From Candidatus Limnocylindrales bacterium (GTDB lineage: Bacteria; Chloroflexota; Limnocylindria; Limnocylindrales; CSP1-4): a DNA stretch of 64,000 nucleotides. Under the pieces are notes generated by a model that was given only the letters and a program-made list of their open reading frames with translations, was not told the origin of the DNA and searched no databases. This document shows positions 6,198-34,627 of the stretch, piece by piece. The stretch lies in contig DASSMQ010000006.1 of NCBI GenBank assembly GCA_035688805.1, forward strand, positions 15,012 through 79,011, written 5' to 3'. Each line of letters begins with the position of its first letter. The first letter of the stretch is position 1. The position numbers and the translations under genes are program-made.

Positions 6198-6221
6198 CGC
6201 GTGGTCGGCGTCGCGGAGCTC

Positions 6222-7454: not shown

Positions 7455-7456
7455 CG

Positions 7457-8227: not shown

Positions 8228-8232
8228 GCCCG

Positions 8233-10044: not shown

Positions 10045-10324
10045 GAGGCGGGAGTGTAGCGGGCGCGGAGCCGCCGACTACTCGTGTGCCTACGGCAGGA
10101 CCGCCATCGTCGCTTCGCGTGGAGTCGTGAGAGGACTGCCATCCGGCATTGGTCGGCAGGTATCTTCAGGCCTGGTTTCCGTAGGACGTACCCAAGAGCG
10201 ATCTGACGTGGAGCGACCATTCCGAGTCACGCGGCGAATACACCCAAAGAAGCTCGTTCCTGGCTCCACGCCACCGGCGACCTGACTCTCGCGGCGCCGC
10301 TTCGCAGGGGCAACCCCCCGAGGA

Positions 10325-11077: not shown

Positions 11078-11196
11078 CGGCGATTGTAGGGGCGCGTCGG
11101 CTGCATCTCGCCACCATCTGCTACCATCCGTCGTCGCGCCGCCGCCCTCGCGCCGCGCGAACCCGATCAGATCCCACGCACGTGAGGTTCTCCCCC

Positions 11197-11847
11197 TTGG
11201 CCAAGACGCCCCGCACCTGGACCGGCGCGCGGACCCCGTCGGGACTCAAGCGCGTCCGGCAGGCGAATAGCCGCCACGAGGTGCTTGGTCCGCGTCGGAG
11301 TGCCGCCAAGACCTTCGTCGCCAAGGCCGTCAGCGCCGCCGCCTCCACCGATGCCGAGGCAGCCACCGCCGCACTGACCGAGGCGCTGTCGGCGCTCGAT
11401 CGAGCCGCCAAGGCGGGCGCGATCCACCCGAACGCGGCCGCCCGACGCAAGTCGCGGCTGACCCGCAAGGTCAACGCCGCGGTCGGTGGGACGGGCGTCC
11501 AGGCCGGCGGCCGGGTCGCCAAGCAGACCGGCAAGGCCGCCGCGGCCAAGGCCGCCAAGGCGCGCATCGCCGCCGGCAAGTCGACCAAGGCCAAGGGCGC
11601 TCAGACGGCCGCCGGCAAGGCGCGCGCCGCGCTGTCGAAGACGGCTCGGGCAGAAGCCGCCGCGGCGAAGGCCGCCCAGGCGTCCTCAGCAGAGACCCCC
11701 GCGCCCGCGGCCGTGAAGCCGGCGCGGCCGGCCGCGAAGGCCACGGCCACCAAGAAGCCGACCACCGCCAAGGCAGGCGCCACGAAGGCGGCGTCGAGGT
11801 CGACGGCGACGAAGTCCGCGACCGCTCGGAAGACCACCAAGAGCTAA
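11197..11847 (+). CDS. rpsT: 30S ribosomal protein S20 with a ~130-aa Ala/Lys/Pro-rich C-terminal extension
   Basis: The N-terminal ~85 aa match S20 (LKRVRQANSRH ... LDRAAKAGAIHPNAAARRKSRL). A TTG start at 11197 lies 9 nt after GAGG. The tail is AKAAKA / KPARPAAKATATKKP-like. Confidence 0.85.
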   Translation: MAKTPRTWTGARTPSGLKRVRQANSRHEVLGPRRSAAKTFVAKAVSAAASTDAEAATAALTEALSALDRAAKAGAIHPNAAARRKSRLTRKVNAAVGGTGVQAGGRVAKQTGKAAAAKAAKARIAAGKSTKAKGAQTAAGKARAALSKTARAEAAAAKAAQASSAETPAPAAVKPARPAAKATATKKPTTAKAGATKAASRSTATKSATARKTTKS

Positions 11848-18293: not shown

Positions 18294-21200
18294 TCAGCCC
18301 CCGTTCACCGTCCGGCCAACGCCCTCCGGCGGTCGTGCCCGCCCGCCGATCGACGCCAGGCGGGTCGCGACGCGGGCCGCCACCAGCCGTCGCGCATGGC
18401 GCCGCCGCAGGGTGGCGGCGACCACCGACAAGGCACCGACCCCGGTCAACCCGAGCAGGCTCGCGCCGGCACCCGGCAGGAGTCCCGGGTCCGCCCCGAA
18501 CCCCGCCACCTGCATCTCGGGCGCGGAGCGCTCGCCCGTCGTGCCGATGGCGGCGGTGCCAGCCTCCGGTGAGCTGGCGGGCGTCGGGTTTCCCAGCCCG
18601 TCCAGGCCGCTGCCGAGGACGATCGTCGAGGGGTCGTCGACCACGACGACCGTCTGGCCGTCCTCGTCGCGACGCACTCGGCCGACGACGTTGATGGCGT
18701 CGCGTGGCTCGATCAGCCCGAGCCAGCCGGCGGCCTCCCCGGTCAGGACGATCGACCCGACGGACGTGCCGTCGTCCAGTCGGAAGCCGGTGGGCCGCAG
18801 CTCCACCACCAACCCGCCGACCCGCACGGTCGCGCCGAGAAGCGCCTCCAGGTCGGCCAGGTCGGCATCGGCCACGGTCCGACCGACACCCGGGGCTCCC
18901 GATGACAGGACCGGACCCTCGGTCGAGGTCACGGCGACGCCGCTGTCACCCCCGGAGCGACGATCGCTCGCCCGCGGCACGCTCGTCACGTGCACGTCCG
19001 CCGAGCCCCTCGGCAGCACCGCTGGCCGTCGGTCCGTCGCACTCGGATAGGCCGGGCGGACGATCCCGACGATCTCGGCGGTCCCGCCGGCGCCGAGCAC
19101 CGTGCTGGGAATCGCGGCACCGGGCTGGCCGATCACGACGAGGGACTGCGCGCCGCTGATCACCTCCGCGCGCCAGCGGTCGCCGAGCTTGTGGACCGCA
19201 TCGACCCGGCCCGCGATCGATACGAGGCGCCACGTATGCGCGGCCCCGAGGGCGCCGGCCACGCGGAGTGGCGCCGGGATCGATGCCGAGCCGAGGCGGT
19301 CGAGGCTGGTCGCCCGCAGGCGCGGAGCGCCGTAGGCCGATCCGATCCGGCCGACCGCCCGGATCCTCGACCCGACCCCCGGGGCCGACGCGGTCTTGGG
19401 CACGAGCACTTCGATCGCGCCACTCGGGTCCTGGACGACGATCCGTCGGCCCGTCGAATCGAGCAAGGTGGCCGGCGCGGTCACGACCGCCTCGATCGCG
19501 ACATCGCGATCGGTGACCCGCCGGGCGGCCGCGATGGATAGCACGGTCGGAGTGCCGCCGGTCGTGGTCGATCCATTCGGCTTGGGCTTCGGGGTCGGCG
19601 TCGGGGCGTGACTCGGTGACGGGGTCGGCGTCGGCGCAGGAACCGTGAGCACGACGTCTGCAGGATCCCGGGCCCAGATCCGATAGCCGTCCGGCTGGTC
19701 CTTCTTCGACGCGCGCTGGCCCGCGATGCCGGTGACCCGGTACCGGGCCCATAGGTCGAAGGCCGAGGTCCCCAGCCCGCTCGAAGCGTCGGTCATCACC
19801 CGGACTCGCGTGCCGTCCGAGGTCTCGATCGTGACCGTGATGTCGTTGCTCGTCGACTTCACCGGCCGGACGACCACGAGACCGTCGAAGCGGACGAGCT
19901 TCGCCTCGGACGACTCGTCCGGACCACTCGGGGGAACGACCGCCGGCTCCGGCAGGACGCCAACGCCCTCGACGTGCAGGTCGCTGGCGAGGGGTCGGAT
20001 CTCGGTCTGCCCGTACGGATCGGCGAGCGGACCACGGACCCACACGACCTGGCCACGACTGGGTGCCGGCAGCTCGGCGGGGAGTCGCACGATCAGCGCG
20101 CCGGTCGCATCCTGGACCGGGAACAAGGCAGGCGTCCCCACCCGGCCGGGCTCGGCCGTGACGACGCCACGGATCGCGACGCTCGTGCCGACCGGCATCG
20201 TCCGGGCCGTCCCGATGGCCATCGCTTCGGCGGGCGGCGCCGACGTGGCGGTCGGGGTCGGGATCGGGGTCGGGGTTACGGTCGGGGTCGCGGTCATGTC
20301 GGCAGTCGGCGTGGGCTCGGGCGTCGCGGTAGGGTCCTCGGTCGGCGTGGTAGATGGGGCCGAGGTCGGGGAAGGCGCAGGCGTCGACGTCGGCACGGGG
20401 GTCGAGGTCGGCAGGGCGAGCTGCAGGTCGCCCGGCGCCGTGACATAGAGCCGATAGCCGCCGGTGCCGGTCCCGGAGCTGTCGCGCTGCCCGAGCGGGC
20501 CGACCGCGGTGACCATGGTCCCTTGCGAAACAGGCCTGCCCGCAACGGCCGTCGGCGTGACGACCACCCGGACGGGTCCGGAACCGTCGTCGATCGAGAA
20601 GGCCGTCCCGTCGGCGAGGGCCTCGTCGGCGCCCGTGACCGAACCCTGCGCCTCGAGCCGAGTACCTTCGAGCAGCTCGGTTGCGCCGCCGGTCGTCGTG
20701 CCGAGGGCTGGCGGGACACCAGGGTTGCCATCAACCATCACCGCACCCTGGGTGATGCGCAGCGTTCGCTGGGCATAGCGAGAATCGACCTCGCCGTGCA
20801 CGTGGATGGCAGTACCCGCAGCGATCGGGTCGACCACCACCGCGTCAAGGTAGAGGGCGATCCCACCGGTCGCGTCCTGGACGAAGGCAGTCCGACCGGC
20901 CTCGAGCGCGCCGAGGTCCGTGGTCAGGACGCCTGAGATCGTGACGACGGATCCATCGGGCAAGGCGCGGGCGGCAACGATGGACGTCGTGGGCGGAGGC
21001 GTCGGCGTCGGTGCCGGGGAGACGGTCGGGACTGGCGTGGGCTCCGGCGTGGGCGGCATGGTCGGCTCCGGCGTGGGCGGCACGGTCGGCTCCGGCGTTG
21101 GCGCCGGGGTGGGCGGCACGGTCGGCTCCGGCGTGGGCGGCACGGTCGGCTCCGGCGTCGGCGCCGGGCTGGGCGGCGCGGTCGGCTCGGGCATCGGCGC

Positions 21201-21965
21201 CGGGGTGGGCTCGATCGTCGGCACCGGCGACGCAGTCGGACCGGGGGTGGCCGTCGCCGTCGGACTGGGCGACAGCGTCGGCACGGCGGTCGGCGTGGCC
21301 GTCGGCGTCGGGCTCGGGCTCGCGACGGGGGCAGGGATCGGCGGTGACGCTACATCCTGCGGTCCCGGCGTCGCCGACACGAACCAATCAGCGCCATTGG
21401 CGTTCGTGTCGATGGCGTTGCCGAGGACTCCACCAGGGCGCCGTTCGAGGCTGGATCCCGCGGGTGGCGCGGCAGCCGCCGTCCCCTCGACGAAGGCGTT
21501 GGTCGCATCACCCCAGCCGATCGCGTCGATCACCGAACCACCGACCACGCGCAGCGCGACCGACCCTCCGGTCGCGGCGAAACCGCCCGAGTACGTCGCA
21601 TCGCCGAACCCGACGTAGGAGCCAGCGCCATTGACGATGAGCGTCCGCTGTCCGGGACCAAGGATCGTCGACGTCGACCAGGTCGCCTTGCGCGTGACCG
21701 TCGAGCCGGTCGACGTCGCGTACACGACCTCGAGCCCGACCAGATCGGCAGGACCCGTACCCTGATTGGCGATCTCGACGAACTCGTCCGATGCGCTCGA
21801 GCCGCCGGTCTGGATCTCCGACACGACGAGCGTGGATACCGGCCACGCGGCCGACGCCGCGAGTGCGACGTCCCCCAGCCGTGCGCTGTGTGTGGGTCCG
21901 CTCGACAGGCAGACGGCGACGACGAGGGCGAGCGCGGTGGTCCCCGCGCGCCGGGCGCGTTGCAT
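18294..21965 (-). CDS. large secreted/anchored protein: signal peptide, lamin-tail domain (LTD), Pro/Thr linkers, repeated OB-fold-like modules, C-terminal TM helix
   Basis: 1223 aa. N-terminal signal peptide, then an LTD-like VVSEIQTGGSSASDEFVEIANQG. At least four internally similar ~90-aa modules (e.g. VTISGVLTTD...FVQDATGGIALY and VAIRGVVTAE...PVQDATGALIVRL). C-terminal hydrophobic helix followed by RRRHARR. Confidence 0.8.
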   Translation of the reverse strand: MQRARRAGTTALALVVAVCLSSGPTHSARLGDVALAASAAWPVSTLVVSEIQTGGSSASDEFVEIANQGTGPADLVGLEVVYATSTGSTVTRKATWSTSTILGPGQRTLIVNGAGSYVGFGDATYSGGFAATGGSVALRVVGGSVIDAIGWGDATNAFVEGTAAAAPPAGSSLERRPGGVLGNAIDTNANGADWFVSATPGPQDVASPPIPAPVASPSPTPTATPTAVPTLSPSPTATATPGPTASPVPTIEPTPAPMPEPTAPPSPAPTPEPTVPPTPEPTVPPTPAPTPEPTVPPTPEPTMPPTPEPTPVPTVSPAPTPTPPPTTSIVAARALPDGSVVTISGVLTTDLGALEAGRTAFVQDATGGIALYLDAVVVDPIAAGTAIHVHGEVDSRYAQRTLRITQGAVMVDGNPGVPPALGTTTGGATELLEGTRLEAQGSVTGADEALADGTAFSIDDGSGPVRVVVTPTAVAGRPVSQGTMVTAVGPLGQRDSSGTGTGGYRLYVTAPGDLQLALPTSTPVPTSTPAPSPTSAPSTTPTEDPTATPEPTPTADMTATPTVTPTPIPTPTATSAPPAEAMAIGTARTMPVGTSVAIRGVVTAEPGRVGTPALFPVQDATGALIVRLPAELPAPSRGQVVWVRGPLADPYGQTEIRPLASDLHVEGVGVLPEPAVVPPSGPDESSEAKLVRFDGLVVVRPVKSTSNDITVTIETSDGTRVRVMTDASSGLGTSAFDLWARYRVTGIAGQRASKKDQPDGYRIWARDPADVVLTVPAPTPTPSPSHAPTPTPKPKPNGSTTTGGTPTVLSIAAARRVTDRDVAIEAVVTAPATLLDSTGRRIVVQDPSGAIEVLVPKTASAPGVGSRIRAVGRIGSAYGAPRLRATSLDRLGSASIPAPLRVAGALGAAHTWRLVSIAGRVDAVHKLGDRWRAEVISGAQSLVVIGQPGAAIPSTVLGAGGTAEIVGIVRPAYPSATDRRPAVLPRGSADVHVTSVPRASDRRSGGDSGVAVTSTEGPVLSSGAPGVGRTVADADLADLEALLGATVRVGGLVVELRPTGFRLDDGTSVGSIVLTGEAAGWLGLIEPRDAINVVGRVRRDEDGQTVVVVDDPSTIVLGSGLDGLGNPTPASSPEAGTAAIGTTGERSAPEMQVAGFGADPGLLPGAGASLLGLTGVGALSVVAATLRRRHARRLVAARVATRLASIGGRARPPEGVGRTVNGG
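21041..21200 (-). repeat. in-frame tandem repeat (60-nt period with 24-nt sub-repeat) encoding the PEPTVPPT linker
   Basis: 21061-21120 and 21121-21180 are 57/60 identical. Encodes TPEPTVPPTPEPTVPPTPAP. Confidence 0.85.
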
Positions 21966-22968: not shown

Positions 22969-25900
22969 CTAGCCGAGCCGACGCATGCCGGCATGCCCGA
23001 GCTGTCGGACCCCACCAGGTTGCTCCGGCCCGCCGACCGTGGCGACCACCTCGGGGAGTGGCTTGATGTCGCGAGCGACGAGGTTGACGACCTTGCCTTC
23101 GCGCTGGAGCTCACCATCGACCAGCAGCAGGGCGTGCCGGCGGACCACGCCGCGTAACCGTTCCCAGACGTTCGGCCAGAGGGTCACATTCACCATCCCG
23201 GTCTCGTCCTCGAGCGCCAGGAAGACCGTGCCCTTGGCGGTCATCGGATGCTGCCGGGTGACGACTAGTCCTCCCACCCGGACCCGGCCCGGCCGCCGAT
23301 CGGCCAGTGACGCATTCGGCACCGCCCCGAGTCGATCGAGCGCGGTCCGGAAGAGCCCGACCACCTGCCGGCGGGCATCGACCCCCAGTACCGCATAGGC
23401 GTCACCGACCCGCTCGGACTCGGTGATCGCCGGCAGGTCGGGCGCATCGGTCGCCGGGAGTCGGAGATCCAGCGGCCGGCCCGCTGCCGCGTGCCGCTTG
23501 CCGGCGGCCCGCCCGAGGGCACGGACCGTCCGGCCATCCATCCGACCGCGTGACGCCCCGGCCACCTCGCGCAACTGCCAGAGCAGCTCCCGCCGTGGCC
23601 GGTCCAACGAGTCCATCGCGCCGCTGCGGATGAGTCGCTCGAGCACCTCCTCGGGCAGGCCCGTCCGTTCGACCACGTCGACCAGGTTCCGATACGGGCC
23701 GCGGGCCCGCTCGGCATCGAGCGCTGCCTGGTGCTGCTCCCCGATGCCCTTCACCAGGCCGAGCCCGAGCCGGACCGCCCAGCCGGCGGTCACCGCCGGC
23801 GTCCAGCGCTCCCGCGACGACGCGGAGGGAACGATGCACGCGGAGGAGACGACCGGGTCGGGCTGTGCGTCTGGGCCGATCCACTCGGTCGTCGTCGCGT
23901 AGCACGACGCGTTGACGTCCACGGGCAGCACCGCTACCCCGTGGCGCTTCGTGTCGTTGACCAGGACCTCGACCGGATAGAAGCCCATCGGCTGGGCATT
24001 GATCAGCCCGACCAGGAACTGGGCGGGGTAGAACAGCTTGAGGAAGGCCGACTCGTAGGCGGTCCGGGCGAAGGCCGCCGCGTGCGACTTGGCGAACCCG
24101 AAACTGGCGAACGCGGCGACCTGGCGAAACAGCTCCTCGGCGGTCTCGAGCTCGAGCCCGGGCTGGCGCAGCGCCCCGTCGACGAACCGGTGATGGAGCT
24201 TCTCCATCTCGCGCGATGAACGCCAGGTCCCCATCGCTCGCCGGAAGCCATCCGATTCGGCCGGGCTGAACCCGGCCACCTCGATGGCGATGCGCATGAC
24301 CTGCTCCTGGTAGAGGATCACTCCGAGCGTGTCCTTCAGCACGGGCTCCAGGCTGGGGTGCAGGTAGACGACCGGCTCGAGGCCCTGCTTGCGGCGCAGG
24401 TACGGGTGGACGGCGTTGCCCTGGATCGGCCCGGGTCGGATGATCGCCACCTCGACCACCAGGTCATCGAGCCTGCCCGGCCGCGACTTGGGGAGCGTCT
24501 GCATCTGTGCCCGGCTCTCGACCTGGAAGACGCCCACCGTGTCGGCCGCCTGGAGCATCGCGAAGACCTCGGGCACGTCCTCGGGCAGGCGGTCGAGATC
24601 GAGGCAGACCGCACAGTCATGCTCGATGAGCTGCAGGGTCTCGTCCATCGCGGCGAGCATCCCGAGACCGAGCAGGTCGAGCTTGATGAGCTTGAGCGTC
24701 TCGACGTCGCGCTTGTCGAACTGGACGACCACCCGGTCGGGCATCGTGGCCCGCTCGAGCGGGGCGAGGTCGATGAGGGGGGCGGCCGTGACGAGCATGC
24801 CGCCGCTATGGATGCTGAGGTGACGCGGGAACCCGTCGATCCGGGCGCAGAACTCGAGCCAGCGCTCCCAGTGGGAGAGGCCGACCGTCGAGCCGCCACG
24901 GGCCTGCGGCGGTGGCTCGGGCACGATGCGGGCGACCGAGCTCGCATTCGCTGGGGTCGGCGGGGGATCCCACATGATCGGCCTGCCGAGACGATCGGTC
25001 TTCCGTGGTGGCGGCAGGGTCATGCCGCTCTCCGGATCGACCGGGACGGGTCCCTGGCCCAGCGGGGGTGTGCCATAGCCCGTCCCCCGCCCGGCTCGCA
25101 GCCAGGCCACGCTCGCCGGCGTGTCGCCCGGTCCGCCCTCGTCGTCGGACGGCCCGCGGCGGATCGTCGTGACCGGTGCGAGCGGGTCCTCGCGGAACGC
25201 GGCATCACCACGCTCCGTGGCATTGCCCTCCTCGGTGGTCGATTCCCGGAGCCAGGCGAACGGACGCGGCGCGTCCGGGTCCACCGGGGTCCGCGGCTGC
25301 TTCCACGGTGGCACCTTCCCGATCAGGGGCAGCCGCTTGTTCAACTGGCCCATGCCATCGACCAGCCCGTGCGCCTCCGCCTGTTCGGCCGCGCCGGCCT
25401 CCGGTGGCAGGCCCTCCCCGGATCGTCGGAAGAACTCGGCGAACCCGCCGTCGGCCTCGAGGTCGCGCCGGACCATGACCGAGTCGTACGTCTCGAGCGC
25501 CTTCGCGACCCGATCTACCAGGGGCCGCGGGAAGCCGAGCGCATAGCCCACCTCGCGCACCGCCGAACGCGCCCGGTAGGTGACAAGGTTGCAGACCATC
25601 CCCGTGTGCTCCGGCCCGTAGCGTCGGTAGATGTACTGGATGACCTCCTCGCGCCGAGCCGAGCTGAAGTCGATGTCGACGTCCGGGTACGTCGTCCGAC
25701 CCGGATTGATGAACCGCTCGAACAGGAGGTCGTGGGCGATCGGCTCGACGCGGCTGATCCCGAGGGTGTACGACACGATCGAACTGGTCGCGCTCCCCCG
25801 ACCCTGGGCCGGGATGCCCTGCTCCCTCGCGAAGCGCATCAGGTCCCAGCAGATGAGGAAGAACTCGGCAAGGCCGGCTCGCTCGATGACGTCGAGTTCA

Positions 25901-27072
25901 TGGGCGAGCCGCTTGACCACCGCCGAGGTCAACGGGTGATAGCGCCGCCGTGCGCCGGTCCAGCACAGCTCGGAGAGATGAGAGAACGGTGTCTCACCCT
26001 CAGGGACCGGGAAGCCCGGGAACCGGTACTGCTCGAACCCGAGATCGACCGAGCACGATGCCGCGATCTCGACCGAGTTGGCGATCCCCTCGCGCCAGGC
26101 ACGGGCAGCACTCGACTCGAGCGAGTCGCCGAGCGTTGCCAGCGCCTCGCCCGATTTCAGGAAGGACTCGCCGTCCGGCCGACGCAGATCGGCCAGCGTG
26201 TCGAGCGTCCGGCCGTGTCGGATGGCGGTCAGCACGTCGTGGAACTCGCGGTCGTCGGCCGTCGCGTAATGGACGTCGTTGGTGACCACGACGGGCAGGC
26301 CGAGCTCGATCGCCAGCGCGGCCGATTCGGCGACCAGCCAGTCGTCGTCGGGCAGGAGATGGTGCGACAGCTCGATGAAGAACCCGCTCGTCGACGGGCC
26401 ATCGCCGCGGCCGAAGAGCGTCGCATAGCGCTCGGCGACAGCGCGCGCGCCGGCCCGATCGCCGACCCGCAGGCGTCGCGCGATCTCCCCCTCGCGACAA
26501 GCCGACAGCGCGACCAGGCCATCGTGATCAGCCTCGAGCAGGTCGTGCGTGATGCGCGGCATCGCCTTGGTCCCGGCCAGGTTGGCGTGCGACACCAGGC
26601 GACTCAGGCTGCGCCAGCCGGCAGGGGTCCGGGCGAGGAGCACGAGGTGTGGGCCGCGGGCCCGGTCCCCGACCCCGCGCACATCTTCCTTGACCAGGTC
26701 GCGGTGACCGGGCAGACGGGCGCGATCGGGTCGCGGCCGCACGGGCCGGCCGTCGGTGATCGTCGGCTCGACGGCCGGAGACTCGCCCTGCCGGCGGCGT
26801 GGCCGGCGGCGAGACGGGACCACCACCCGGCCGGGATCGGGCACGGCCGTATCGATCAGGTCGATCTCGGTCCCGACGACGCCAGGGAGGCCAGCCTCCT
26901 CGGCGGCACTCATGAACCGGACGGCGCCGTACAGCCCGTTCCGATCCGTCGCAGCGAGGGCGGTCAGCCCCAGGGCGACGGCCCGCTCGACCAGGTCGTC
27001 CGGCGGCGAGGCGCCATCGAGGAACGAGAAGTTGGTGTGGGCGTGGAGTTCGGCGTATGGGATGGTCGCCAC
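22969..27072 (-). CDS. dnaE2: error-prone DNA polymerase III alpha-subunit paralog (DnaE2/ImuC type), unusually long at 1367 aa
   Basis: N-terminal PHP domain (YAELHAHTNFSFLDGASPPDDLV), a Pol III alpha core (PDVDIDF, GFPRHLSIHSGGMLV) and an OB fold at the C-terminus. LexA-type box and SD upstream. GTG start. Confidence 0.9.
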   Translation of the reverse strand: MATIPYAELHAHTNFSFLDGASPPDDLVERAVALGLTALAATDRNGLYGAVRFMSAAEEAGLPGVVGTEIDLIDTAVPDPGRVVVPSRRRPRRRQGESPAVEPTITDGRPVRPRPDRARLPGHRDLVKEDVRGVGDRARGPHLVLLARTPAGWRSLSRLVSHANLAGTKAMPRITHDLLEADHDGLVALSACREGEIARRLRVGDRAGARAVAERYATLFGRGDGPSTSGFFIELSHHLLPDDDWLVAESAALAIELGLPVVVTNDVHYATADDREFHDVLTAIRHGRTLDTLADLRRPDGESFLKSGEALATLGDSLESSAARAWREGIANSVEIAASCSVDLGFEQYRFPGFPVPEGETPFSHLSELCWTGARRRYHPLTSAVVKRLAHELDVIERAGLAEFFLICWDLMRFAREQGIPAQGRGSATSSIVSYTLGISRVEPIAHDLLFERFINPGRTTYPDVDIDFSSARREEVIQYIYRRYGPEHTGMVCNLVTYRARSAVREVGYALGFPRPLVDRVAKALETYDSVMVRRDLEADGGFAEFFRRSGEGLPPEAGAAEQAEAHGLVDGMGQLNKRLPLIGKVPPWKQPRTPVDPDAPRPFAWLRESTTEEGNATERGDAAFREDPLAPVTTIRRGPSDDEGGPGDTPASVAWLRAGRGTGYGTPPLGQGPVPVDPESGMTLPPPRKTDRLGRPIMWDPPPTPANASSVARIVPEPPPQARGGSTVGLSHWERWLEFCARIDGFPRHLSIHSGGMLVTAAPLIDLAPLERATMPDRVVVQFDKRDVETLKLIKLDLLGLGMLAAMDETLQLIEHDCAVCLDLDRLPEDVPEVFAMLQAADTVGVFQVESRAQMQTLPKSRPGRLDDLVVEVAIIRPGPIQGNAVHPYLRRKQGLEPVVYLHPSLEPVLKDTLGVILYQEQVMRIAIEVAGFSPAESDGFRRAMGTWRSSREMEKLHHRFVDGALRQPGLELETAEELFRQVAAFASFGFAKSHAAAFARTAYESAFLKLFYPAQFLVGLINAQPMGFYPVEVLVNDTKRHGVAVLPVDVNASCYATTTEWIGPDAQPDPVVSSACIVPSASSRERWTPAVTAGWAVRLGLGLVKGIGEQHQAALDAERARGPYRNLVDVVERTGLPEEVLERLIRSGAMDSLDRPRRELLWQLREVAGASRGRMDGRTVRALGRAAGKRHAAAGRPLDLRLPATDAPDLPAITESERVGDAYAVLGVDARRQVVGLFRTALDRLGAVPNASLADRRPGRVRVGGLVVTRQHPMTAKGTVFLALEDETGMVNVTLWPNVWERLRGVVRRHALLLVDGELQREGKVVNLVARDIKPLPEVVATVGGPEQPGGVRQLGHAGMRRLG

Positions 27073-27186: not shown

Positions 27187-28725
27187 ATGGGCTTACCTGA
27201 CCGGGTGCGATCGACCCGTCACCGTCGCCATGCCGCCTGGTCTCGCCTCGTCCTCACCCTGACCGCCGCGGTCACGCTCTTGGCCGGGATCGCGGGCCCG
27301 ATCCCCGCTGTCCGGGCCGCGGACATCCGACCGCGGATCACCGGGATCGCGCCCCTGACCCACGAGGTCTACGGGTATCTCCCCTACTGGCGCCTGGATG
27401 CCGGCACGGTCGACCGGCTGCACTACGACCTCGTGTCGACCATCGCGTTCTTCGGCCTCGGGATCCTCGGGACGGGGGCGATCGACACGTCCTGGATCGG
27501 CTATCGGGCGTACATCGGCGACGACGCGGCGGCGGTCACCAATGCCGCCCACGACCACGGGGTTCGGGTCGTTCCCACGTTCCAGCTGTTCGATTCGGCG
27601 ACCGGCGCGCCCAAGATGACGGCGTTCCTCGGCAGTCGGTCGGCGCAGGACCGGTTCATCGGCGAGGCGCTCGACCTCATGGCCGCACGGAGCGCCGACG
27701 GTGCCGGGCTCGACTTCGAACCGGTCGGCGCCCTGGCCGCGCGCGCCTCGGAGTACGTCGCCTTCGTGGCCCGGTTCCGGGGCGCGATGAAGGCCCGCTT
27801 CCCGGGAGCCACGCTGGTGACCGCGACCTCGGCTGGGGCGACCCAGGAGCTCGTCCAGGGTGTCGCCCCATACGTCGATCATCAGATGGTGATGACCTAC
27901 AACTACCGCTCCTCCGGCTCGACGATCGCCGGCGCGGTTGCCCCGCTCGATCACGCGACGAGGAACGTCAAGAAGCACATCACCCGGATGCTGGGCTGGG
28001 TGCCGGCACGCTCCTTGCTGCTCGGCGAGCCCTATTACGGATACGACTGGCCGGTCACCAGCGCCATCCCGAACGCGACGGTCCAGTCGGACAAGTCGAC
28101 CTATGGCCCCGTCCGGAGCGTCACCTACGCCAGTGCCCGCGATTTCCTGGCCGCGCACCCGAGTGTCGTCCGGCGCTACGACTCTCTCGAGGGGAGCGCC
28201 TTCTACTGGTACTACGACAGCACGAAGCGGACCTACCGCGAAGCCTATTTCGACGATGAGCGGAGCCTCGCCGCGAAGGACGACTACGCGATCGCCACCG
28301 GCCTTGGCGGGATCGGCATCTGGACGCTCGACAACGACCGCGGCTACCGGCAGCTGTGGGACGTCCTCCGTTCGAAGTTCTACGCCCCGGTCCTGAGCAT
28401 GTCGGTCCGGGCGTCGGTCAGCGACCTGACCCGGGTATCCGGGGTCGTGTCCGTGGTCGTCCATGCCGGAGCCACGAATACGGGGACCGTGCCGCTGACC
28501 GGATCGCTGCGCTGGGCGATCCGCGACCCAGGTGGCCGAGTCGTGGCCAGCGGTCATTGGCCGACCACCGTCGTCTACCCTGGCCGGAGCACGAGTCACG
28601 CCGTCCGTGCCGCCCTCGGGCTGGCCACCTCCCTGCCAGCCGGCACCTACCACCTTCGGGTGCGGTTCGTGACGTCGACGAAGGCCTACGGGCCGCCGGA
28701 CGTGGCCTTCCGCCAGCCGTACTGA
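27187..28725 (+). CDS. secreted glycoside hydrolase family 18 protein (chitinase / peptidoglycan-hydrolase-like)
   Basis: Signal peptide, catalytic motif DGAGLDFEP (DGxxxDxE), then MTYNY and GIGIWTLDND. Has a ~110-aa C-terminal beta-rich domain. Confidence 0.85.
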   Translation: MGLPDRVRSTRHRRHAAWSRLVLTLTAAVTLLAGIAGPIPAVRAADIRPRITGIAPLTHEVYGYLPYWRLDAGTVDRLHYDLVSTIAFFGLGILGTGAIDTSWIGYRAYIGDDAAAVTNAAHDHGVRVVPTFQLFDSATGAPKMTAFLGSRSAQDRFIGEALDLMAARSADGAGLDFEPVGALAARASEYVAFVARFRGAMKARFPGATLVTATSAGATQELVQGVAPYVDHQMVMTYNYRSSGSTIAGAVAPLDHATRNVKKHITRMLGWVPARSLLLGEPYYGYDWPVTSAIPNATVQSDKSTYGPVRSVTYASARDFLAAHPSVVRRYDSLEGSAFYWYYDSTKRTYREAYFDDERSLAAKDDYAIATGLGGIGIWTLDNDRGYRQLWDVLRSKFYAPVLSMSVRASVSDLTRVSGVVSVVVHAGATNTGTVPLTGSLRWAIRDPGGRVVASGHWPTTVVYPGRSTSHAVRAALGLATSLPAGTYHLRVRFVTSTKAYGPPDVAFRQPY

Positions 28726-28800
28726 CGGGCCCTCCCACGACGGGACCATCGATCCCGCCCACCCGTGCAACAACTCGCCGCGCTCCGGCGTCTCTTGGCC

Positions 28801-28944
28801 ATGCACGCTCCCAGCCACCTCGATCGCCCGCTTCGACCGGCCGCTGCGGCCGCGTTCCGGACGGCCCTCGCGGTGGTGGTGGCGTCGCTGCTGATCCTCG
28901 TCGTCCTCCCCGCGATGCTCGCGGTCCAGGCGACGACGATCTAG
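28801..28944 (+). CDS. candidate 47-aa single-TM micro-protein
   Basis: MHAPSHLDRPLRPAAAAAFRTALAVVVASLLILVVLPAMLAVQATTI. Third-position GC is about 89% in this frame. No clear SD. Confidence 0.3.
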   Translation: MHAPSHLDRPLRPAAAAAFRTALAVVVASLLILVVLPAMLAVQATTI

Positions 28945-29130
28945 CACCAACCGACGTCTCGGCGCCTGGGGGCTCGGGACGATCGTCGGCGATCGACTGC
29001 GATAGCCGATCCGCCGACCTGCCGGATCGCTGGTGAGCGAGGATCCGGCCACAGGACCCCGTCGCTGGGGGCGACGGGGTCCTGTCACGTCCGGGGGCCG
29101 ATCGGCCCGCAGCCCGTAGACTCATCCGAC

Positions 29131-29670
29131 ATGACATCGCGAACCCGCCGCCTCCTGATGACGATCGTGACGATGGCACTTCTGGGCGGGTGTGGCGGCA
29201 CGTCGCCCGGCAGCCCCGGACCGTCGACTGCCGCGACGGCGACCGCGGCCGCTTCGACGCCGGCCGGGGGACCGAGCACCAGCGCATCGGCCGAACCGAC
29301 CGCCACGACCCCGCGTGCCGGTCCCGCGGTGGGTCAGACCGACACCGACTGGGGCCGGATCTGGGACGCCGTCCCGACCGATTTCCCGCGGTTCCCAGGA
29401 TCGAAGGTCGCCGATGACACGGGCGAGGCGCCGGTCAGCGCCCGGTTCGCGGTCGACGGCGGCGATCCCAAGGCGATGGCCGCCTGGATGCAGTCGGCGA
29501 TGGAGACGGCCGCGTACAGTACGGAGGGCCTCAACGGGCCCCTCGAGGATGGCAGCATGGTCCTCGAATCGGTCGGGGATGGCGGCTGTCGCATCCAGAC
29601 GACGATCGCCCCGCTCGGCGGGACGGTCTTCGTGACGATCCGGTACGGCGCCGCCTGCCCGCTGCACTGA
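29131..29670 (+). CDS. hypothetical lipoprotein
   Basis: Lipobox in MTIVTMALLGGC, an Ala/Thr/Pro-rich linker and a ~110-aa globular C-terminus. Confidence 0.65.
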   Translation: MTSRTRRLLMTIVTMALLGGCGGTSPGSPGPSTAATATAAASTPAGGPSTSASAEPTATTPRAGPAVGQTDTDWGRIWDAVPTDFPRFPGSKVADDTGEAPVSARFAVDGGDPKAMAAWMQSAMETAAYSTEGLNGPLEDGSMVLESVGDGGCRIQTTIAPLGGTVFVTIRYGAACPLH

Positions 29671-29691
29671 CCACAGGAGCATCGATCGCGC

Positions 29692-29799
29692 ATGCAGCCC
29701 CGCTCCACCGACTTCCTTGGTGCCGCGCTCCTGGCCATCGTCCTGATCGGGCTGGTGGTGATCCTGTTCGTCGGCAATATCCCGGCGGCCACCGCCTGA
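29692..29799 (+). CDS. candidate 35-aa single-TM micro-protein
   Basis: MQPRSTDFLGAALLAIVLIGLVVILFVGNIPAATA. Third-position GC is about 91%. AGGAG lies 12 nt upstream. Confidence 0.35.
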   Translation: MQPRSTDFLGAALLAIVLIGLVVILFVGNIPAATA

Positions 29800-29904
29800 A
29801 TCCGGTAGCTGCGCGCGGTTCTCGTCGCGCGTTGTGCTCGCCCCGCCGCTATGCTGTGGCTGGATCGACCGGGACTTCGGTCCGGACAGGGGGAACGCCG
29901 CTCC

Positions 29905-30009
29905 ATGCAATCGGCACGACCGCGTGATCTGGGTGTCCTCGTCCTCGCGATGGGGGTCCTGCTCGTTCTGTTCGTGGTGAGCCTGACGCTCGGGTCGCCG
30001 TTGCGCTGA
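29905..30009 (+). CDS. candidate 34-aa single-TM micro-protein (similar layout to 29692-29799)
   Basis: MQSARPRDLGVLVLAMGVLLVLFVVSLTLGSPLR. Third-position GC is about 79%. Confidence 0.3.
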   Translation: MQSARPRDLGVLVLAMGVLLVLFVVSLTLGSPLR

Positions 30010-30028
30010 GTCCGGTCCGGCACGGACG

Positions 30029-30277
30029 TCAGTCGTACAGACGTTCGATATGCCAGGTGCCGGCGATCCGGTCGAGATAGACGAGCGCGAGCCAGCGTTC
30101 GCCCACGACCTTCGCGTACTCGCGGGCGATCGGATCGCGCCACCACGACTCATCGACCCGCCAGCGGTTGCACACCTCGACCGCCTCGCGACGCCCGTTC
30201 CAGCGGATGGCGATGAGCCGTCCATCGCCATCGAGCTCGACGTCGATGCGCGGATGCTCGCGCAGGAGGCGGGTCAT
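30029..30277 (-). CDS. 82-aa conserved-looking hypothetical protein, translationally coupled to imuB
   Basis: ATG at 30277 overlaps the imuB TGA (ATGA). Sequence MTRLLREHPRIDVELDGDGRLIAIRWNGRREAVEVCNRWRVDESWWRDPIAREYAKVVGERWLALVYLDRIAGTWHIERLYD, Trp/Arg-rich and beta-strand-like. Confidence 0.65.
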   Translation of the reverse strand: MTRLLREHPRIDVELDGDGRLIAIRWNGRREAVEVCNRWRVDESWWRDPIAREYAKVVGERWLALVYLDRIAGTWHIERLYD

Positions 30278-31548
30278 GCCGGCCATCCGTCGCGCCCGTC
30301 GTCGGCGAGCCCGACTGAGCGCCACGCCCAGCGTGCTTCCGCCAGCGGCGCCTCCGGGTCGGTGATGGCGACCCGGCGGATGCGATCCTCCCCGTAGGTC
30401 AGCGCCAGCCTCGCCAGCTGCCACCCGAGTCGGGCCGTCCGGGCGGCCTGGGGCACGAACAACGGCAGTTGTTGGCCCGCCGCCGGGGTCGTGCCGCGCA
30501 GTTCCAGGTCGATCCGCTGGACCGCTGCCGGCGGCGGCTGGCGCTCGAGGCGCGCGAACAGCAGACGCTCGACGGCTTCGGGGTCCGCGGTGGGTTCCGG
30601 GAAGCGCTGCTCGACCTCCATCCGCGGCGACGTACCGACCGGCGCGAACGCAAGGTCCAGTTCCAGCGTCAGCACTGCCCGATCCGCGGCGAGCCCTCGA
30701 CCGGTGAGCTGGGCGGCCAGCGCCGCCACTAGGCGATGGAGGACGAACCGGAGCGGCTCGAGCTCCTCGACCGGGGGTTCGATGGGCAGGGCGAGGGCCA
30801 GGCGCTCGGTCGCGTGGCGAGCCCCGAACGGCTCGGTCTCCTCGCCTCGAGCACGAGCATGGAGCCGCGCGCCCTCCTCGCCGAACCGGGCGATCAGCGC
30901 GGATCGCGGGAGGACCGCCACCGCGCCGATCCGACGCAGTCCGAAGCGGGTCAGGCGTGCCCGGACATCGGGGTCGGTGGTGAGCAGCCCGGACGGACGG
31001 TCGGCCAGGAACGCCGCCTCACCCCCGGGTGGGACGATGATCGGACCGTCCGGGGTGGCGGCCAGCGCCGCGACCGAGGCGGCGAACCGGGTGCCGGCGA
31101 TCCCGGCGCGCGGTGACGGCTCCCCGGGGAGGGCGCCTCGCAGCGCCGCACCGGCCCGCTCGATCAGTCGGGGCTCGGCCCCCCACAGCGGCTCGAGCCC
31201 ATCGATCCCGACCTCGAAGAACCCGAATGAGGCCGCCGATGGGTCGCTGGTCCCGGCCAGGCTCGGGCTGGATCGCCCGAGCGCCTCGAACACGGCCTCG
31301 GCAGCTCCCCGATCCGCATCGGGATCGGGGTCGATGAAGGTCGCCTCAGGGACGAGTCGGTGGGCGCTCCCGAGCGGCATCCCGCGTCGGACGCCGAGCG
31401 CCCGAGCTGTCGGATCGGCGTCGAGGACCGGACCCGGATCCCAGGGTCGCCCGCCCAGCACGAGCGGGCCGGTCGGGAAGGGCTCGGAGCGTCGAGCCCG
31501 GGCCAGGTGGAGCGGCAGGTGCGGCACGAACAGGTGCAGACGTCGCAT
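30274..31548 (-). CDS. imuB: ImuB, Y-family-polymerase-like mutasome subunit
   Basis: Start at the ATG at 31548 (MRRLHLFVPHLPLHLARARR..., a typical ImuB/DinB-like N-terminus). The catalytic acidic residues are not evident. Gene order is imuA'-imuB. Confidence 0.85.
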   Translation of the reverse strand: MRRLHLFVPHLPLHLARARRSEPFPTGPLVLGGRPWDPGPVLDADPTARALGVRRGMPLGSAHRLVPEATFIDPDPDADRGAAEAVFEALGRSSPSLAGTSDPSAASFGFFEVGIDGLEPLWGAEPRLIERAGAALRGALPGEPSPRAGIAGTRFAASVAALAATPDGPIIVPPGGEAAFLADRPSGLLTTDPDVRARLTRFGLRRIGAVAVLPRSALIARFGEEGARLHARARGEETEPFGARHATERLALALPIEPPVEELEPLRFVLHRLVAALAAQLTGRGLAADRAVLTLELDLAFAPVGTSPRMEVEQRFPEPTADPEAVERLLFARLERQPPPAAVQRIDLELRGTTPAAGQQLPLFVPQAARTARLGWQLARLALTYGEDRIRRVAITDPEAPLAEARWAWRSVGLADDGRDGWPA

Positions 31549-32719
31549 GGTCGGTCTCGCGATCGGGGGCCTCATGAACGGGGGCGTGGACGGGAGGCGG
31601 CGGAGCGGCCGACAGCCGGAGGTCGACCGGATCGGCCCAGCGGGTGGGTTCCTTGCTTCCCGCGTACGAGCTTGCAGGCACGGCAAGTACCACGGGCGAG
31701 GACCGCGTACGGGCCTCATCTCCGAGCGATCCCTTGCCTTCGGGGCAAGGAACGGCGGCGATGGCCCGGCTATCGGTCGACGGCACCTCATCACTTGCGA
31801 GGACCGCAAGTTCCACGACCATCTCGCCTGGCCGTGCAGCGGTACTTGCCGTGGAGGCAAGCCCTTGCGCCGCGGGCACGTCGAGCGCGTCGAACAGGAG
31901 GGCGTCGTCGGCGAGGCACGCATCGCGCTCACCGCCCTCCGCGTAGAGGATCCGCAGGATGGCTCGGCGTCCCGGCGGACCGTGGCGGTTGTGGGCGACG
32001 AGCGCCTCGGTCCGCTGCCCGACGACGTCCCGGCCGAGACGGACCCAGGACCGCCGAGCGAGCTCCAGCCGGATGCCGGTCGATTGGTCGACCGCGGTCG
32101 TGAGGCCACCGCCCGACCCGGGCGCATCGAGGATCAGGAGCAGCGTCTCCGCCCGCCGGGCGAGAGCGGCGAGTCGATGGAGGCGATCGGCGATCTTCGC
32201 CGGCGTGTCGGTCCTGGCCAGACGGCCACCGGGCAGGTCGATGACGAGCAGGTCGACCGAGCGGCCGGCCAGCAGGCTGCCGGCGATGCCCAGGCCCTCG
32301 TCCAGGCTGGCCGGGGTGATGACCACGAGCCATTCGAGCCGGATGCCGCGGCTGACGGCTTCGACCGGGTCGAAGCTGCGCGACAGGTCCAGCCACGCCA
32401 CGACCGAGCCCTGGGCCTGGGCCTCCGCGGCGACCCGCAGGCTGAGGGTCGTCCGCCCGCTCGAGCCTTCCCCCCGGATCGCGACGCTGGCCGAGGTCGG
32501 CAACCCGCCCGGTCCGAGGATCGCGTCGAGGGCGGCGAAGCCGGTGTGGATGATCCGGTCGGCGGGCCGTGGGTCGGCGGAGGGTGACGGTCCCGGCATC
32601 TCTGTGGGGACCGGTGCCGGAGCCAGGGCCAGGGCGCCGACCACGCTCGGAGCTGCAGCACCCCAGCGGGCCCGGAGGCCCGCGACGGCGGCATCCACAT
32701 CACCCCGACCGGTCGACAT
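31346..32719 (-). CDS. imuA: ImuA' (RecA/SulA-fold mutasome subunit) with a ~190-aa low-complexity run-on tail
   Basis: RecA-like core at about aa 60-285 (FAALDAILGPGGLPTSASVAIRGEGSSGRTTL ... LLVIDLPG). Codon bias collapses near 31865, yet no in-frame stop occurs until 31346, 200 nt inside imuB. Confidence 0.7.
   Translation of the reverse strand: MSTGRGDVDAAVAGLRARWGAAAPSVVGALALAPAPVPTEMPGPSPSADPRPADRIIHTGFAALDAILGPGGLPTSASVAIRGEGSSGRTTLSLRVAAEAQAQGSVVAWLDLSRSFDPVEAVSRGIRLEWLVVITPASLDEGLGIAGSLLAGRSVDLLVIDLPGGRLARTDTPAKIADRLHRLAALARRAETLLLILDAPGSGGGLTTAVDQSTGIRLELARRSWVRLGRDVVGQRTEALVAHNRHGPPGRRAILRILYAEGGERDACLADDALLFDALDVPAAQGLASTASTAARPGEMVVELAVLASDEVPSTDSRAIAAVPCPEGKGSLGDEARTRSSPVVLAVPASSYAGSKEPTRWADPVDLRLSAAPPPPVHAPVHEAPDRETDHATSAPVRAAPAAPPGPGSTLRALPDRPARAGRATLGSGSGPRRRSDSSGARRPTRDAARERPPTRP
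31651..31876 (-). repeat. array of CTTGC-N7-GCAAG hairpins (4 complete, 2 half-sites)
   Basis: Hairpins at 31671-31687, 31732-31750, 31793-31811 and 31845-31861, with stems of 5-7 bp and loops that all differ. Extra CTTGC copies at 31653 and 31865. Confidence 0.8.
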
Positions 32720-32732
32720 CGGACGTCGATAG

Positions 32733-32748
32733 TAGAACAGATGTTCTA
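32733..32748 (-). promoter_or_regulatory. LexA-type SOS box (TAGAAC-N4-GTTCTA) inside the imuA' promoter
   Basis: The minus strand reads TTGCCT (32752-32757), a 17-nt spacer containing the box, then TACTAT (32729-32734). The ATG is 9 nt after the -10, implying a near-leaderless mRNA. Confidence 0.8.
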
Positions 32749-32807: not shown

Positions 32808-33566
32808 ATGCTGCCGATGCCGACCTCGACCTCCGACCCCGCGGTCCCGACCGCGCCGATCCTCGTCGTCGACGACGACGCGAAGATCGTCCGGCTCGTG
32901 CGGACCTACCTCGAACGGGACGGGTTCTCGGTCGTGACCGCCGCCGACGGCCCGGCCGCGCTCGCCGCGATCGAGGCCCATGCGCCCGCCCTCGTCGTGC
33001 TGGACCTGATGCTCCCCGAACTGGACGGGCGGGCCGTCATCCGGGCCGTCCGCCGCGACGACGAGGCCGGCCGCACGCCGATCCTCGTCCTGTCCGCGCG
33101 TAGCTCGACCATCGACCGGATCGCCGGACTCGAGGATGGGGCCGACGACTACCTGCCCAAGCCGTTCTCACCCGCCGAGCTCGTGCTCCGGGTGAAGTCG
33201 ATCCTGCGCCGTGCGGCGCCGGCCGGGGCAGGCCTGGCGGATGCCCGACGACCATCGACTCCGCTGCTCCGCCACGCCGATCTCACCGTCGACCCGTCCC
33301 GCCACGAGGTCCGCCGCGGCGACGCGGCCATCGACCTCACCCGGGTCGAGTTCAAGCTGCTGTCGACGATCCTGGCGGCGGATGGCCGCGTCCTGTCGCG
33401 CGACCAGCTGCTCGACGCCGTGTACGGCCACGAGGCGGCCGACGTCCTCGACCGGACCATCGACGTGCATGTCCGCCGATTGCGCGACAAGCTCGACGAT
33501 GACCCGGAAGCGCCGCGCTATGTCCAGACCGTGCGCGGCATCGGGTATCGCGCCGCCCGGACGTGA
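32808..33566 (+). CDS. OmpR/PhoB-family response regulator
   Basis: Receiver domain (ILVVDDD ... VVLDLMLPELDG ... KPF) plus a winged-helix C-terminus (VRGIGYR). Confidence 0.92.
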   Translation: MLPMPTSTSDPAVPTAPILVVDDDAKIVRLVRTYLERDGFSVVTAADGPAALAAIEAHAPALVVLDLMLPELDGRAVIRAVRRDDEAGRTPILVLSARSSTIDRIAGLEDGADDYLPKPFSPAELVLRVKSILRRAAPAGAGLADARRPSTPLLRHADLTVDPSRHEVRRGDAAIDLTRVEFKLLSTILAADGRVLSRDQLLDAVYGHEAADVLDRTIDVHVRRLRDKLDDDPEAPRYVQTVRGIGYRAART

Positions 33567-34627
33567 TCGGTCGAGGTATCGCCGCACGCATCGCCCTGGC
33601 GGCCATCGCGAGCGCCGCGGTCGGCCTGGTCATCCTCGCCATCGGTGTGGCCGTGGTCGGTGGCGGGGTCTTCACCGAGTTGATGATGAAGGCCGGCGAC
33701 TCGGCCGAGCACGCTCGACGGATGTACGACGACTCGGTGGTCACGGTCGTGGTCGCGGCCTCCGCCCTGGCCGTGCTGGCGAGCCTCGGTCTAGCCGTCG
33801 CCCTCGCCCGGATGCTGGCCCGGCCGCTCGACGAGATCAGTGGCGCCGCTCGACGGATCGCCGACGGTGACTACGCGGCCCGCGTCCCGCGCGAGGGGCC
33901 CGAGGAGCTGGCCAGCCTGGCCGACTCATTCAACCAGATGGCCGCTTCGCTCGAGCGTCAGGAGCAGATGCGGCGCGACTTCATCGCCAACGCAGCCCAT
34001 GAGCTACGGACGCCGTTGACCAATCTGCAGGGCTACCTCGAAGCGCTGCGCGACGGCGTCATCGTGGCCGATGCCGCGACCTACGAGTCGCTCCACGAGG
34101 AGGCCGATCGCCTCGTCCGCCTGTCGCGCTCGCTCGACGCGCTCGCGGAGGGCGACGCCGACACGAGCCCGGCGACACGCATCGAGCTCGATCTCGCGGC
34201 TGCGATCCGCTCAGCGATCGACCTCGCCGCGCCGGCGATCGAACGCGCCGGGCTGCGCCTGGAGACCGGCCTTCCCCCCTCGCTGCCGGCCCGGGCGGAT
34301 CCAGACCGGGTCGCCCAGGTCCTCGCCAACCTCCTCTCGAACGCCATCCGGTACACGGCACGCGGCGGCCTGGTCACGGTCCGCGCCGAACGGCGTCCAG
34401 CCGATGTCCTGGTCTCGGTGACGAATACCGGCGACTCGATCCCGGCCGACGACCTCGATCGGGTATTCGAGCGGTTCTACCGGGTCGAGAAGTCACGCGA
34501 TCGCGCTCGGGGAGGCGCCGGCATCGGGCTGGCCATCGTGAAGCAGCTGGTCGAATCGGGCGGCGGTCGAGTCGGCGCCGAATCGGCTGAAGGTCAGACG
34601 CGCTTCTGGTTCAGCATCCCGGCCTGA
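33563..34627 (+). CDS. sensor histidine kinase (HAMP-HisKA-HATPase_c)
   Basis: GTGA overlap with the regulator. H-box FIANAAHELRTPLT, N-box LLSNAIRYT, G-box GGAGIGLAIVK. Confidence 0.92.
   Translation: MIGRGIAARIALAAIASAAVGLVILAIGVAVVGGGVFTELMMKAGDSAEHARRMYDDSVVTVVVAASALAVLASLGLAVALARMLARPLDEISGAARRIADGDYAARVPREGPEELASLADSFNQMAASLERQEQMRRDFIANAAHELRTPLTNLQGYLEALRDGVIVADAATYESLHEEADRLVRLSRSLDALAEGDADTSPATRIELDLAAAIRSAIDLAAPAIERAGLRLETGLPPSLPARADPDRVAQVLANLLSNAIRYTARGGLVTVRAERRPADVLVSVTNTGDSIPADDLDRVFERFYRVEKSRDRARGGAGIGLAIVKQLVESGGGRVGAESAEGQTRFWFSIPA

Follow-up and report, generated by a model that had tools for sequence, protein, structure and literature searches.

A helically phased array of short palindromes at the imuA'/imuB junction of Limnocylindria, probably a repeat or protein-binding DNA array rather than a dedicated RNA switch

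Short hairpins crowded into the junction of two mutasome genes raise the question of whether they act as RNA, as DNA or mainly as passengers of the gene that carries them. The question is posed here by a 64-kb stretch of a Candidatus Limnocylindrales bacterium (Chloroflexota; GenBank assembly GCA_035688805.1, contig DASSMQ010000006.1, positions 15,012 to 79,011), referred to below as the window, L-numbers designating related loci or contigs and P-numbers ImuA' homologs. The window DNA is of high GC content and its mutasome genes lie on the minus strand. Four hairpins with the stem CTTGC/GCAAG are found in the imuA' reading frame shortly before imuB, and this frame meets no stop until it has entered imuB. 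The original prediction, made from the letters of the window, left three possibilities: a repetitive extragenic palindrome (REP)- or bacterial interspersed mosaic element (BIME)-like insertion that removed the imuA' stop, an RNA element setting the balance of ImuA' and ImuB, or phased protein-binding sites. The hairpins are probably a repeat or protein-binding DNA array and not a dedicated imuA'/imuB RNA switch. More specifically, and with confidence that is no better than even, they may be regarded as a helically phased array of 17-bp palindromes acting on double-stranded DNA, from a gain- and loss-prone class of Limnocylindria repeats resembling REP/BIME or transposable elements of the miniature inverted-repeat type (MITEs).

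The array itself is clear-cut. Exact CTTGC-N7-GCAAG occurs four times in the 64 kb, always within the array, where 0.05 matches are expected, and none of 100 shuffles reaches four. In gene order, palindrome 1 (31845-31861) is, on the minus strand, CTTGC-ctccacg-GCAAG followed by TACC, palindromes 2 (31794-31810; aCTTGC-ggtcctc-GCAAGt) and 3 (31733-31749; cCTTGC-cccgaag-GCAAGg) have arms of 6 bp, and palindrome 4 (31671-31687; ggtaCTTGC-cgtgcct-GCAAG) is palindrome 1 inverted, flank included; the predicted start-to-start spacing of 62, 61 and 51 nt holds. The arms are thus invariant within the array and the centres variable, and a length of 17-19 nt places the palindromes at the short end of the REP range of about 20-40 nt. 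Palindrome 4 with its flank (31662-31691) is 80% complementary over 30 nt to palindrome 1 with its flank (31841-31870), and this inverted-repeat pair resembles terminal inverted repeats or a REPIN (a pair of inverted REPs), being subterminal and not at the exact ends of the insert described below. A degenerate fifth site with one mismatch (CTTGCGCCGCGGGCACG on the plus strand, 31864-31880) abuts the array 19 nt from palindrome 1, a double-site arrangement also present in L081 and L017, and a solitary half-site (ggaaGCAAGgaac on the minus strand, 31652-31656) is kept in L081. Plus-strand CTTGC starts are found at 31652, 31671, 31733, 31794, 31845 and 31864, so the six copies reported earlier exist, although the two extra half-sites had been misplaced by 1 nt. 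Other CTTGC clusters in the window (11447-11619 and 52792-53068) proved to be ordinary coding sequence. An independent assembly, L212 (GCA_046128415.1), is 99.4% identical over 4.45 kb with the same four sites, and the same peptide is encoded by a JGI contig (P0004). This excludes an assembly artefact, or an indel or frameshift hiding the true stop, and makes resequencing unnecessary.

All the palindromes are carried by a segment of 279 nt (93 codons; 31596-31874, minus strand) inserted in frame by comparison with L082 and L083, which are 96% identical in ImuA' and lack it, while the window and L081 have it; its ends are uncertain by a few nucleotides owing to CCGCC microhomology. The insertion contains no stop, five of its six frames are open, its codon-position GC is flat, and the downstream tail remains in frame, as is the case for the other insert variants. 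The fall in third-position GC that had been noticed at the hairpins was recovered, the values being 0.90-0.97 for the RecA-like core and 0.67-0.77 for the segment with the hairpins. Between the window and L081 the insert has diverged by about 32% and its flanks by about 7%; within it, the arms differ at 3 of 40 positions and the rest at 83 of 255 (p = 6e-4), an approximately fourfold slower rate for the arms. Nevertheless, two of the four L081 sites are broken, the ortholog of palindrome 2 by CTGGC and that of palindrome 3 by an ending in ..AAAAG.

Related inserts are found at the same position in other lineages. The 589-nt junction of L017 contains CTTGC-N7-GCAAG in five exact copies, that of L209 contains GTGCA-N5-TGCAC five times, and L084, L205, L206, L207 and L208 share a homologous four-site insert with drifting arms (CGTGC..GCAAG, CGTGC..GCACG). 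Insert-bearing ImuA' proteins are scattered over the core tree, each with an insert-free nearest neighbour at a distance of 0.02-0.04, and the inserts of P0011, P0012, P0030 and P0065 are mutually homologous despite this scatter.

Three of the window copies read LASTAS (palindrome 1), LAVLAS (palindrome 2) and LAVPAS (palindrome 4) in the imuA' frame, as first described, so that an L-A-x-x-A-S peptide repeat under protein-level selection could be imagined as the origin of the palindromes. However, the remaining copy, palindrome 3, reads PCPEGKG in another frame, the five L017 copies lie in other frames as well (SLPGPQG, ILRREQG, SLPALQG and PCRARKK are listed with PCPEGKG), and the palindrome is also found outside coding sequence. 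Beyond residue 275 or so, no secondary structure is predicted, though the AlphaFold model of the 457-aa product is poor (predicted local distance difference test score of 43). Since L017 reads the palindrome in three codon frames, the conserved object is a nucleic acid, as had been proposed, and the probability left to a peptide repeat is practically negligible.

Considering all arrays together, neighbouring palindromes are separated by 19, 29-30, 49-52, 60-62, 73, 81-83 or 122-123 nt. A Rayleigh scan of these spacings peaks at 10.5 nt with R = 0.82 (n = 35). The arrays found without reference to the motif, by protein anchoring, give R = 0.90 (n = 17), matched by none of 5000 random sets, and the non-junction arrays alone give R = 0.97 (n = 9), matched by one of 5000, the optimum lying between 10.5 and 10.8 nt across sets. 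Spacing by whole helical turns makes sense for double-stranded DNA bound on one face, and not for single-stranded spacers or codons, and the proposal of phased protein-binding sites gains support from it.

Arrays built in the same way, with identical arms within an array and varying centres, are also found away from the imuA'/imuB junction, and close relatives may have or lack them. In a metagenome scan for two CTTGC-type sites 30-60 nt apart, the matches listed were mostly unrelated tandem repeats with identical loops, but they also include the Limnocylindrales contig L103, with five sites directly 3' of rpoD, its RpoD being 89-90% identical to named Limnocylindrales proteins. A decaying homologous array lies 3' of rpoD in L211 (RpoD 93% identical), while L210 (RpoD 98% identical) has none there and no site in 21.7 kb. 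In L093, whose taxon resolved only to Chloroflexota, the array is 3' of another gene, the 81% identical ortholog of which in L257 has no array. A motif-free search of imuA'-anchored loci for three or more palindromes with the same arms recovered two arrays that lie just upstream of the LexA box of imuA', GTTCGC-N5-GCGAAC in L051 and AGTGC-N5-GCACT in L040, together with a CATCGC-N5-GCGATG array in L023; no such same-arm palindrome pairs were found in shuffled sequence. The flanks are mixed, a subset having 5' GGTA or 3' TACC, with GGTAGG on the 3' side in L040, and the neighbouring genes comprise a response regulator and kinase, imuB, GH18, dnaG and rpoD. The GTTCGC..GCGAAC arms of L051 could be read as everted LexA half-sites, which was judged a coincidence, the other arrays being without them.

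Several matches outside these arrays deserve mention in their own right. With their 5-bp stem and 7-nt loop, the array palindromes are built like an anticodon arm, and the only other exact matches near imuA', CTTGC-ATGCCAT-GCAAG in L042 (at 323), L045 (at 455) and L047 (at 575), are real anticodon arms of tRNA-Ala(GGC); the loops of the array palindromes do not fit Y-U-NNN-R, and anticodon-arm mimicry was rejected. While matches in a viral scan were mostly unrelated, a phage-like sequence of 66% GC, L217 (IMG/VR UViG_3300009095_000756, 4816-11263), has five dispersed, intergenic and promoter-proximal CTTGC-N7-GCAAG sites, two of them followed 7-8 nt later by TTTAATGG; these are probably the repressor operator of that phage. 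A longer palindrome, TGCATC-N-GATGCA, recurs both upstream of the promoter of imuA' (L008 at 2527, L049 at 3800 and L004 at 2365) and within inserts of the junction (L205, L207 and L208), for example as CTTGCATCGGATGCAAG upstream in L008 and as CTTGCATCGGATGCATC in the junction insert of L205; this recurrence hints that sites move within the locus or that they share a binding protein.

The open frame, which had suggested that the insertion removed the imuA' stop, has a different explanation. The imuA' open reading frame (ORF; 31346-32719, minus strand, 457 aa) comprises a RecA-like core (Pfam RecA, aa 56-163), a variable linker containing the insertion, and a tail lying out of frame over imuB. 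The imuB gene (30274-31548, minus strand) encodes IMS and IMS_C domains, and its start MRRLHLFVPHLPL is conserved in 80 loci. The two overlap at 31346-31548, the imuA' frame staying open, as noted previously, for 200 nt beyond the imuB ATG at 31548 up to its stop codon at 31346-31348, and codon-position GC there follows the imuB frame. This layout is clade-wide, the out-of-frame overlap being of about 200 nt, or 67 codons, across Limnocylindria. The best 120 ImuA' homologs all share the Arg/Pro-rich end tail (...HEAPDRE...TRP), which corresponds to the imuA' frame across the imuB start, and in almost all of 80 species-level genomes the frame enters imuB by 188-302 nt (33 of them by exactly 200 nt). 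Between the end of the core and the imuB start, 35 distinct lengths from 55 to 589 nt are found, yet the length is 1 modulo 3 in 76 of the 80 genomes, in which imuA' keeps one frame relative to imuB, and most junctions are of 55-112 nt and without hairpins. Because the imuA' frame continues into imuB throughout the clade, linker indels are almost always multiples of three, and this filtering argues for read-through of the linker by ribosomes. P0003/L082, without the insertion, has the identical tail end. The open frame therefore belongs to the clade as a whole and is not due to the hairpins; of the REP/BIME-like insertion first envisaged, the insertion and the clustering of short palindromes at unrelated loci stand, while the loss of a stop does not. 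The insertion is presumably tolerated because the length of the ImuA' linker may vary as long as the frame is kept. The 200-nt overlap was discarded as a sign of selection, since random synonymous recoding of the imuB N-terminus introduces no stop into the imuA' frame in about 70% of trials. Gene callers truncate imuB (in L081 and L212, for example, the called start is 34 nt before the imuA' stop), and public imuB annotations in Limnocylindria are probably about 55 codons short.

The main alternative to a DNA array is a cis-acting RNA, in which the four stem-loops of the imuA'-imuB mRNA would modulate the transit of ribosomes, the coupling of translation or the stability of the message, thereby setting the ImuA':ImuB ratio. 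Some observations are in its favor: the sense RNA folds better than shuffled sequence (z = -3.47, as against -2.21 for the antisense), partly through identical arms pairing between sites; the arms are better conserved than the remainder of the insert; and both sides of the second arm pair have changed in L207 and L208 (CGTGC..GCACG). In a motif alignment of 42 sites, decayed ones included, pairing and covariation are slightly above column shuffles (covariation of 0.137 versus 0.077). Pairs 3-5 of the arms are nearly invariant and hence uninformative, and at pair 2 there are 26 hairpins with T:A, three with G:C and 12 without pairing. The compensatory changes claimed at the sixth stem position (C:G twice, G:C once) are not there, the actual pairs being G·T, A:T, C:G and A/C, and over 22 related hairpins 8 are Watson-Crick at this position, no more than by chance (permutation p = 0.35). 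Nor do the mismatches look like those of RNA: among 30 non-Watson-Crick arm positions, three are G·U in the sense strand, six would be G·U in the antisense and 21 are neither, the mismatches being mostly G/A, G/G or T/C. Asymmetric intermediates such as CGTGC..GCAAG would be expected of half-sites drifting under a dimer, whereas in RNA they give a G·A mismatch. Moreover, the array is missing in most relatives, including those 96% identical, half of the hairpins are broken in L081, the stems are of only 5-6 bp, the same palindromes lie 3' of rpoD and upstream of promoters, and spacing in steps of about 10.5 nt would be meaningless for single-stranded spacers. No Rfam family matches, and CsrA-type GGA loops were considered and dropped as inconsistent between copies. 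A role on double-stranded DNA is thus ranked above one in RNA, and a dedicated RNA element is judged unlikely.

Alternatively, the array could be a decaying minisatellite without function or binding partner, in which a hairpin unit of 50-60 nt was tandemly duplicated in a slippage-prone linker and the arms were kept not by selection but by mutational bias, through template switching at quasi-palindromes. The junction is indeed a hotspot of repeat expansion. In L066, L077, L079, L072 and L073 the linker is expanded by unrelated GC-rich tandem repeats, e.g., CGAGCCGGGGCCGCGCCG three times in L079, and the frame is broken in L066 and L077, where imuA' stops 96 nt before imuB. In L081 the first unit is duplicated (36 nt), and units 2 and 3 of the window retain residual similarity (GATGAGG..CCGT, with GCGGTCCTCGC present twice). 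The rapid divergence of the insert relative to its flanks and its flat codon-position GC also suit such an origin. However, template switching keeps the two arms of a palindrome complementary to each other; it does not keep four or five copies identical while loops and spacers randomize. Neither the whole-turn spacing nor the recurrence of the same architecture at unrelated loci is explained, and a minisatellite seems improbable.

A more mobile origin can also be considered, namely a MITE in the strict sense: a non-autonomous element whose terminal inverted repeats consist of the palindrome plus GGTA/TACC, mobilized by a transposase encoded elsewhere, generating target-site duplications and landing repeatedly in the imuA' linker. 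The inverted ends of the window array (30 nt at 80%) are in keeping with it, as is a comparable arrangement in L084, where palindrome a and the reverse complement of palindrome d match at 19 of 26 positions (compared by hand), the repeats being subterminal. So is the presence of homologous inserts in ImuA' backgrounds whose nearest relatives have none. Short direct repeats flank the inserts (ATCGAC in L084, CCTCATCGA in L206, CCGCC in the window and L081), but they are GC-rich and fit microhomology-mediated deletion as well as target-site duplication. A second copy resembling the insert beyond its arms was found neither in the examined loci nor in the plasmid and phage collections, a limited search space, and no transposase lies nearby. 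A 2.7-kb block between imuA' and imuB in L004 (4807-7556), where imuA' stops about 120 nt past the core, was considered as an autonomous partner and rejected, as it encodes an ABC-transporter ATPase and two ORFs without family match and no transposase. The probability given to a MITE in this sense is low.

Among known systems, the array resembles REP/BIME clusters, MITEs and the in-frame palindromic elements of Rickettsia, without corresponding to the full definition of any of them. As in the REP/BIME of enterobacteria and pseudomonads, the palindromes are short and imperfect, with conserved arms, variable centres and lineage-specific sequences, and they cluster in extragenic or intercistronic DNA, some as inverted pairs. 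BIMEs are bound on double-stranded DNA by gyrase, integration host factor (IHF) and Pol I. Unlike REPs, the arms here are of 5-6 bp, the conserved 5' GTAG is absent (a subset has GGTA/TACC), copy number is apparently low, each array has its own arm sequence, and the array of the window lies inside an ORF; no REP-associated tyrosine transposase (RAYT) gene was found, no scan for PF01797 having been run over the whole window or the genomes. With MITEs the array shares inverted repeats, while near-identical copies were not found in the limited search space.

In mycobacteria, interspersed repetitive units (MIRUs) some 50-80 nt long occur at gene junctions within operons, where they keep the frames that overlap the flanking genes, and their copy number varies between strains; however, their copies are near-identical direct tandem repeats, whereas here the arms alone are shared and the spacers are unrelated. 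Rickettsia palindromic elements are in-frame palindromic insertions that add a peptide to a coding gene which is kept, and they are present or absent among relatives (PMC10969869). The in-frame insertion of 93 codons in the window likewise leaves the ImuA' tail intact. In contrast, the Rickettsia elements are some 150 bp long and form families with dozens of copies, in which both consensus and encoded peptide are conserved, while in the present case ten arm bases alone recur, the peptide differs with the frame and a search for further copies found none. A further parallel is offered by sites of multi-site nucleoprotein assembly, namely the res sites of resolvases, the centromeres of plasmids such as sopC, and operator arrays in helical phase. 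These likewise consist of several palindromes with identical half-sites, set at whole helical turns, and a 5-N7-5 palindrome fits a dimeric DNA-binding protein. Unlike these, the arrays here have no cognate recombinase, ParB-type or regulator gene nearby, occupy unusual positions (in an ORF, 3' of rpoD), are dispensable and vary in their arms. An ordinary operator pair with the same kind of palindrome is conserved in Limnocylindria genomes, GGCTA-N7-TAGCC occurring twice, 22 nt apart. In the extended form ATGGCTA-N7-TAGCCAT it lies just upstream of an ATG (L017 7497-7540; also L016, L026, L027, L029 and L030, some 3 kb downstream of the start of imuA'), and it looks like the two-site operator of a local regulator.

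For a phased, gain- and loss-prone DNA array, the following mechanism can be put forward. A dimeric, sequence-specific DNA-binding protein would occupy the sites on one face of the helix, the candidates being a host factor, comparable to gyrase or IHF on BIMEs, or else a transposase or recombinase belonging to a mobile element. Arrays would grow by local duplication, of which L081 (36-nt unit), L211 (46-nt unit) and L017 provide examples, and might be lost by deletion between short direct repeats. Within imuA', the array would be mainly a tolerated passenger adding some 93 probably disordered residues; at most, it could act as a roadblock lowering read-through from imuA' to imuB.

Several findings weigh against this reading. 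The weak pairing and covariation signal and the folding of the sense RNA beyond shuffles, mentioned above, leave some probability to a hairpin role in RNA or in single-stranded DNA. The hundreds of dispersed copies of a generic REP family were not encountered; arrays are rare, the 64-kb window containing a single one and the stretches examined in L210 (21.7 kb) and L257 (20.8 kb) containing none, and with so low a count high-copy REP status is not established. The CTTGC arrays outside imuA' were found by an exact-motif search, so that their shared arms are partly a selection effect, and the insert shows no similarity beyond the arms to the other arrays or to plasmid or phage collections. Arm sequences differ between arrays, hence one host protein cannot read all of them by sequence. 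Some arrays of the phasing set are related to each other. Finally, no binding protein, transposase or RAYT gene was found, the window and genomes not having been scanned for PF01797.

A narrower proposal is that the palindromes are operators of a putative DNA-binding protein aligned on one helix face, within or just upstream of a LexA-controlled imuA'-imuB operon. A LexA-type box, TAGAAC-ATCT-GTTCTA (32733-32748, minus strand), is visible by eye 13 nt upstream of the imuA' start codon, flanked by TTGCCT (32757-32752) and TACTAT (32734-32729); the promoter scan did not call it, no promoter or terminator being called in the region. The same box is present in L008, L040 and L051, and there related arrays are in phase with it, the distance from the last palindrome to the box, centre to centre, being 71.5 nt in L051, 53.5 nt in L040 and 41.5 nt in L008. 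If true, this would provide a second layer of mutasome control, by roadblock or looping, and gain or loss between strains would tune damage-induced mutagenesis. It must nonetheless be regarded as very doubtful.

With regard to the surroundings, an OmpR-type response regulator and a HAMP/HisKA histidine kinase (32808-34627, plus strand) are divergent from imuA', as in L081 and L083. On the other side, dnaE2 (22969-27072, minus strand) is separated from imuB by a 3.2-kb gap holding a GH18 (chitinase-like) gene on the opposite strand (27187-28725, plus strand), together with ORFs without family match at 29122-30231 and 27193-29088 (minus strand), so that the mutasome cassette is not contiguous here. 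A strong tandem repeat at 21022-21306, with 24-, 36- and 60-nt periods and scores reaching 265, lies in a Gly/Val-rich, coding-like region and is unrelated to the array.

These results remove a false lead, the open imuA' frame being the normal layout in a whole class of uncultured soil Chloroflexota. They also bring to light a small type of repeat found neither in Rfam nor in the searchable literature, made of palindromes that conserve their arms, leave their centres free and are separated by whole helical turns; it is gained and lost between near-identical strains and can sit in frame within a gene. If a binding protein exists, the arrays would give access to the biology of the chromosome or of transcription in a class without a cultured model, and if they affect the read-through into imuB, they would constitute a strain-variable modifier of SOS mutagenesis.

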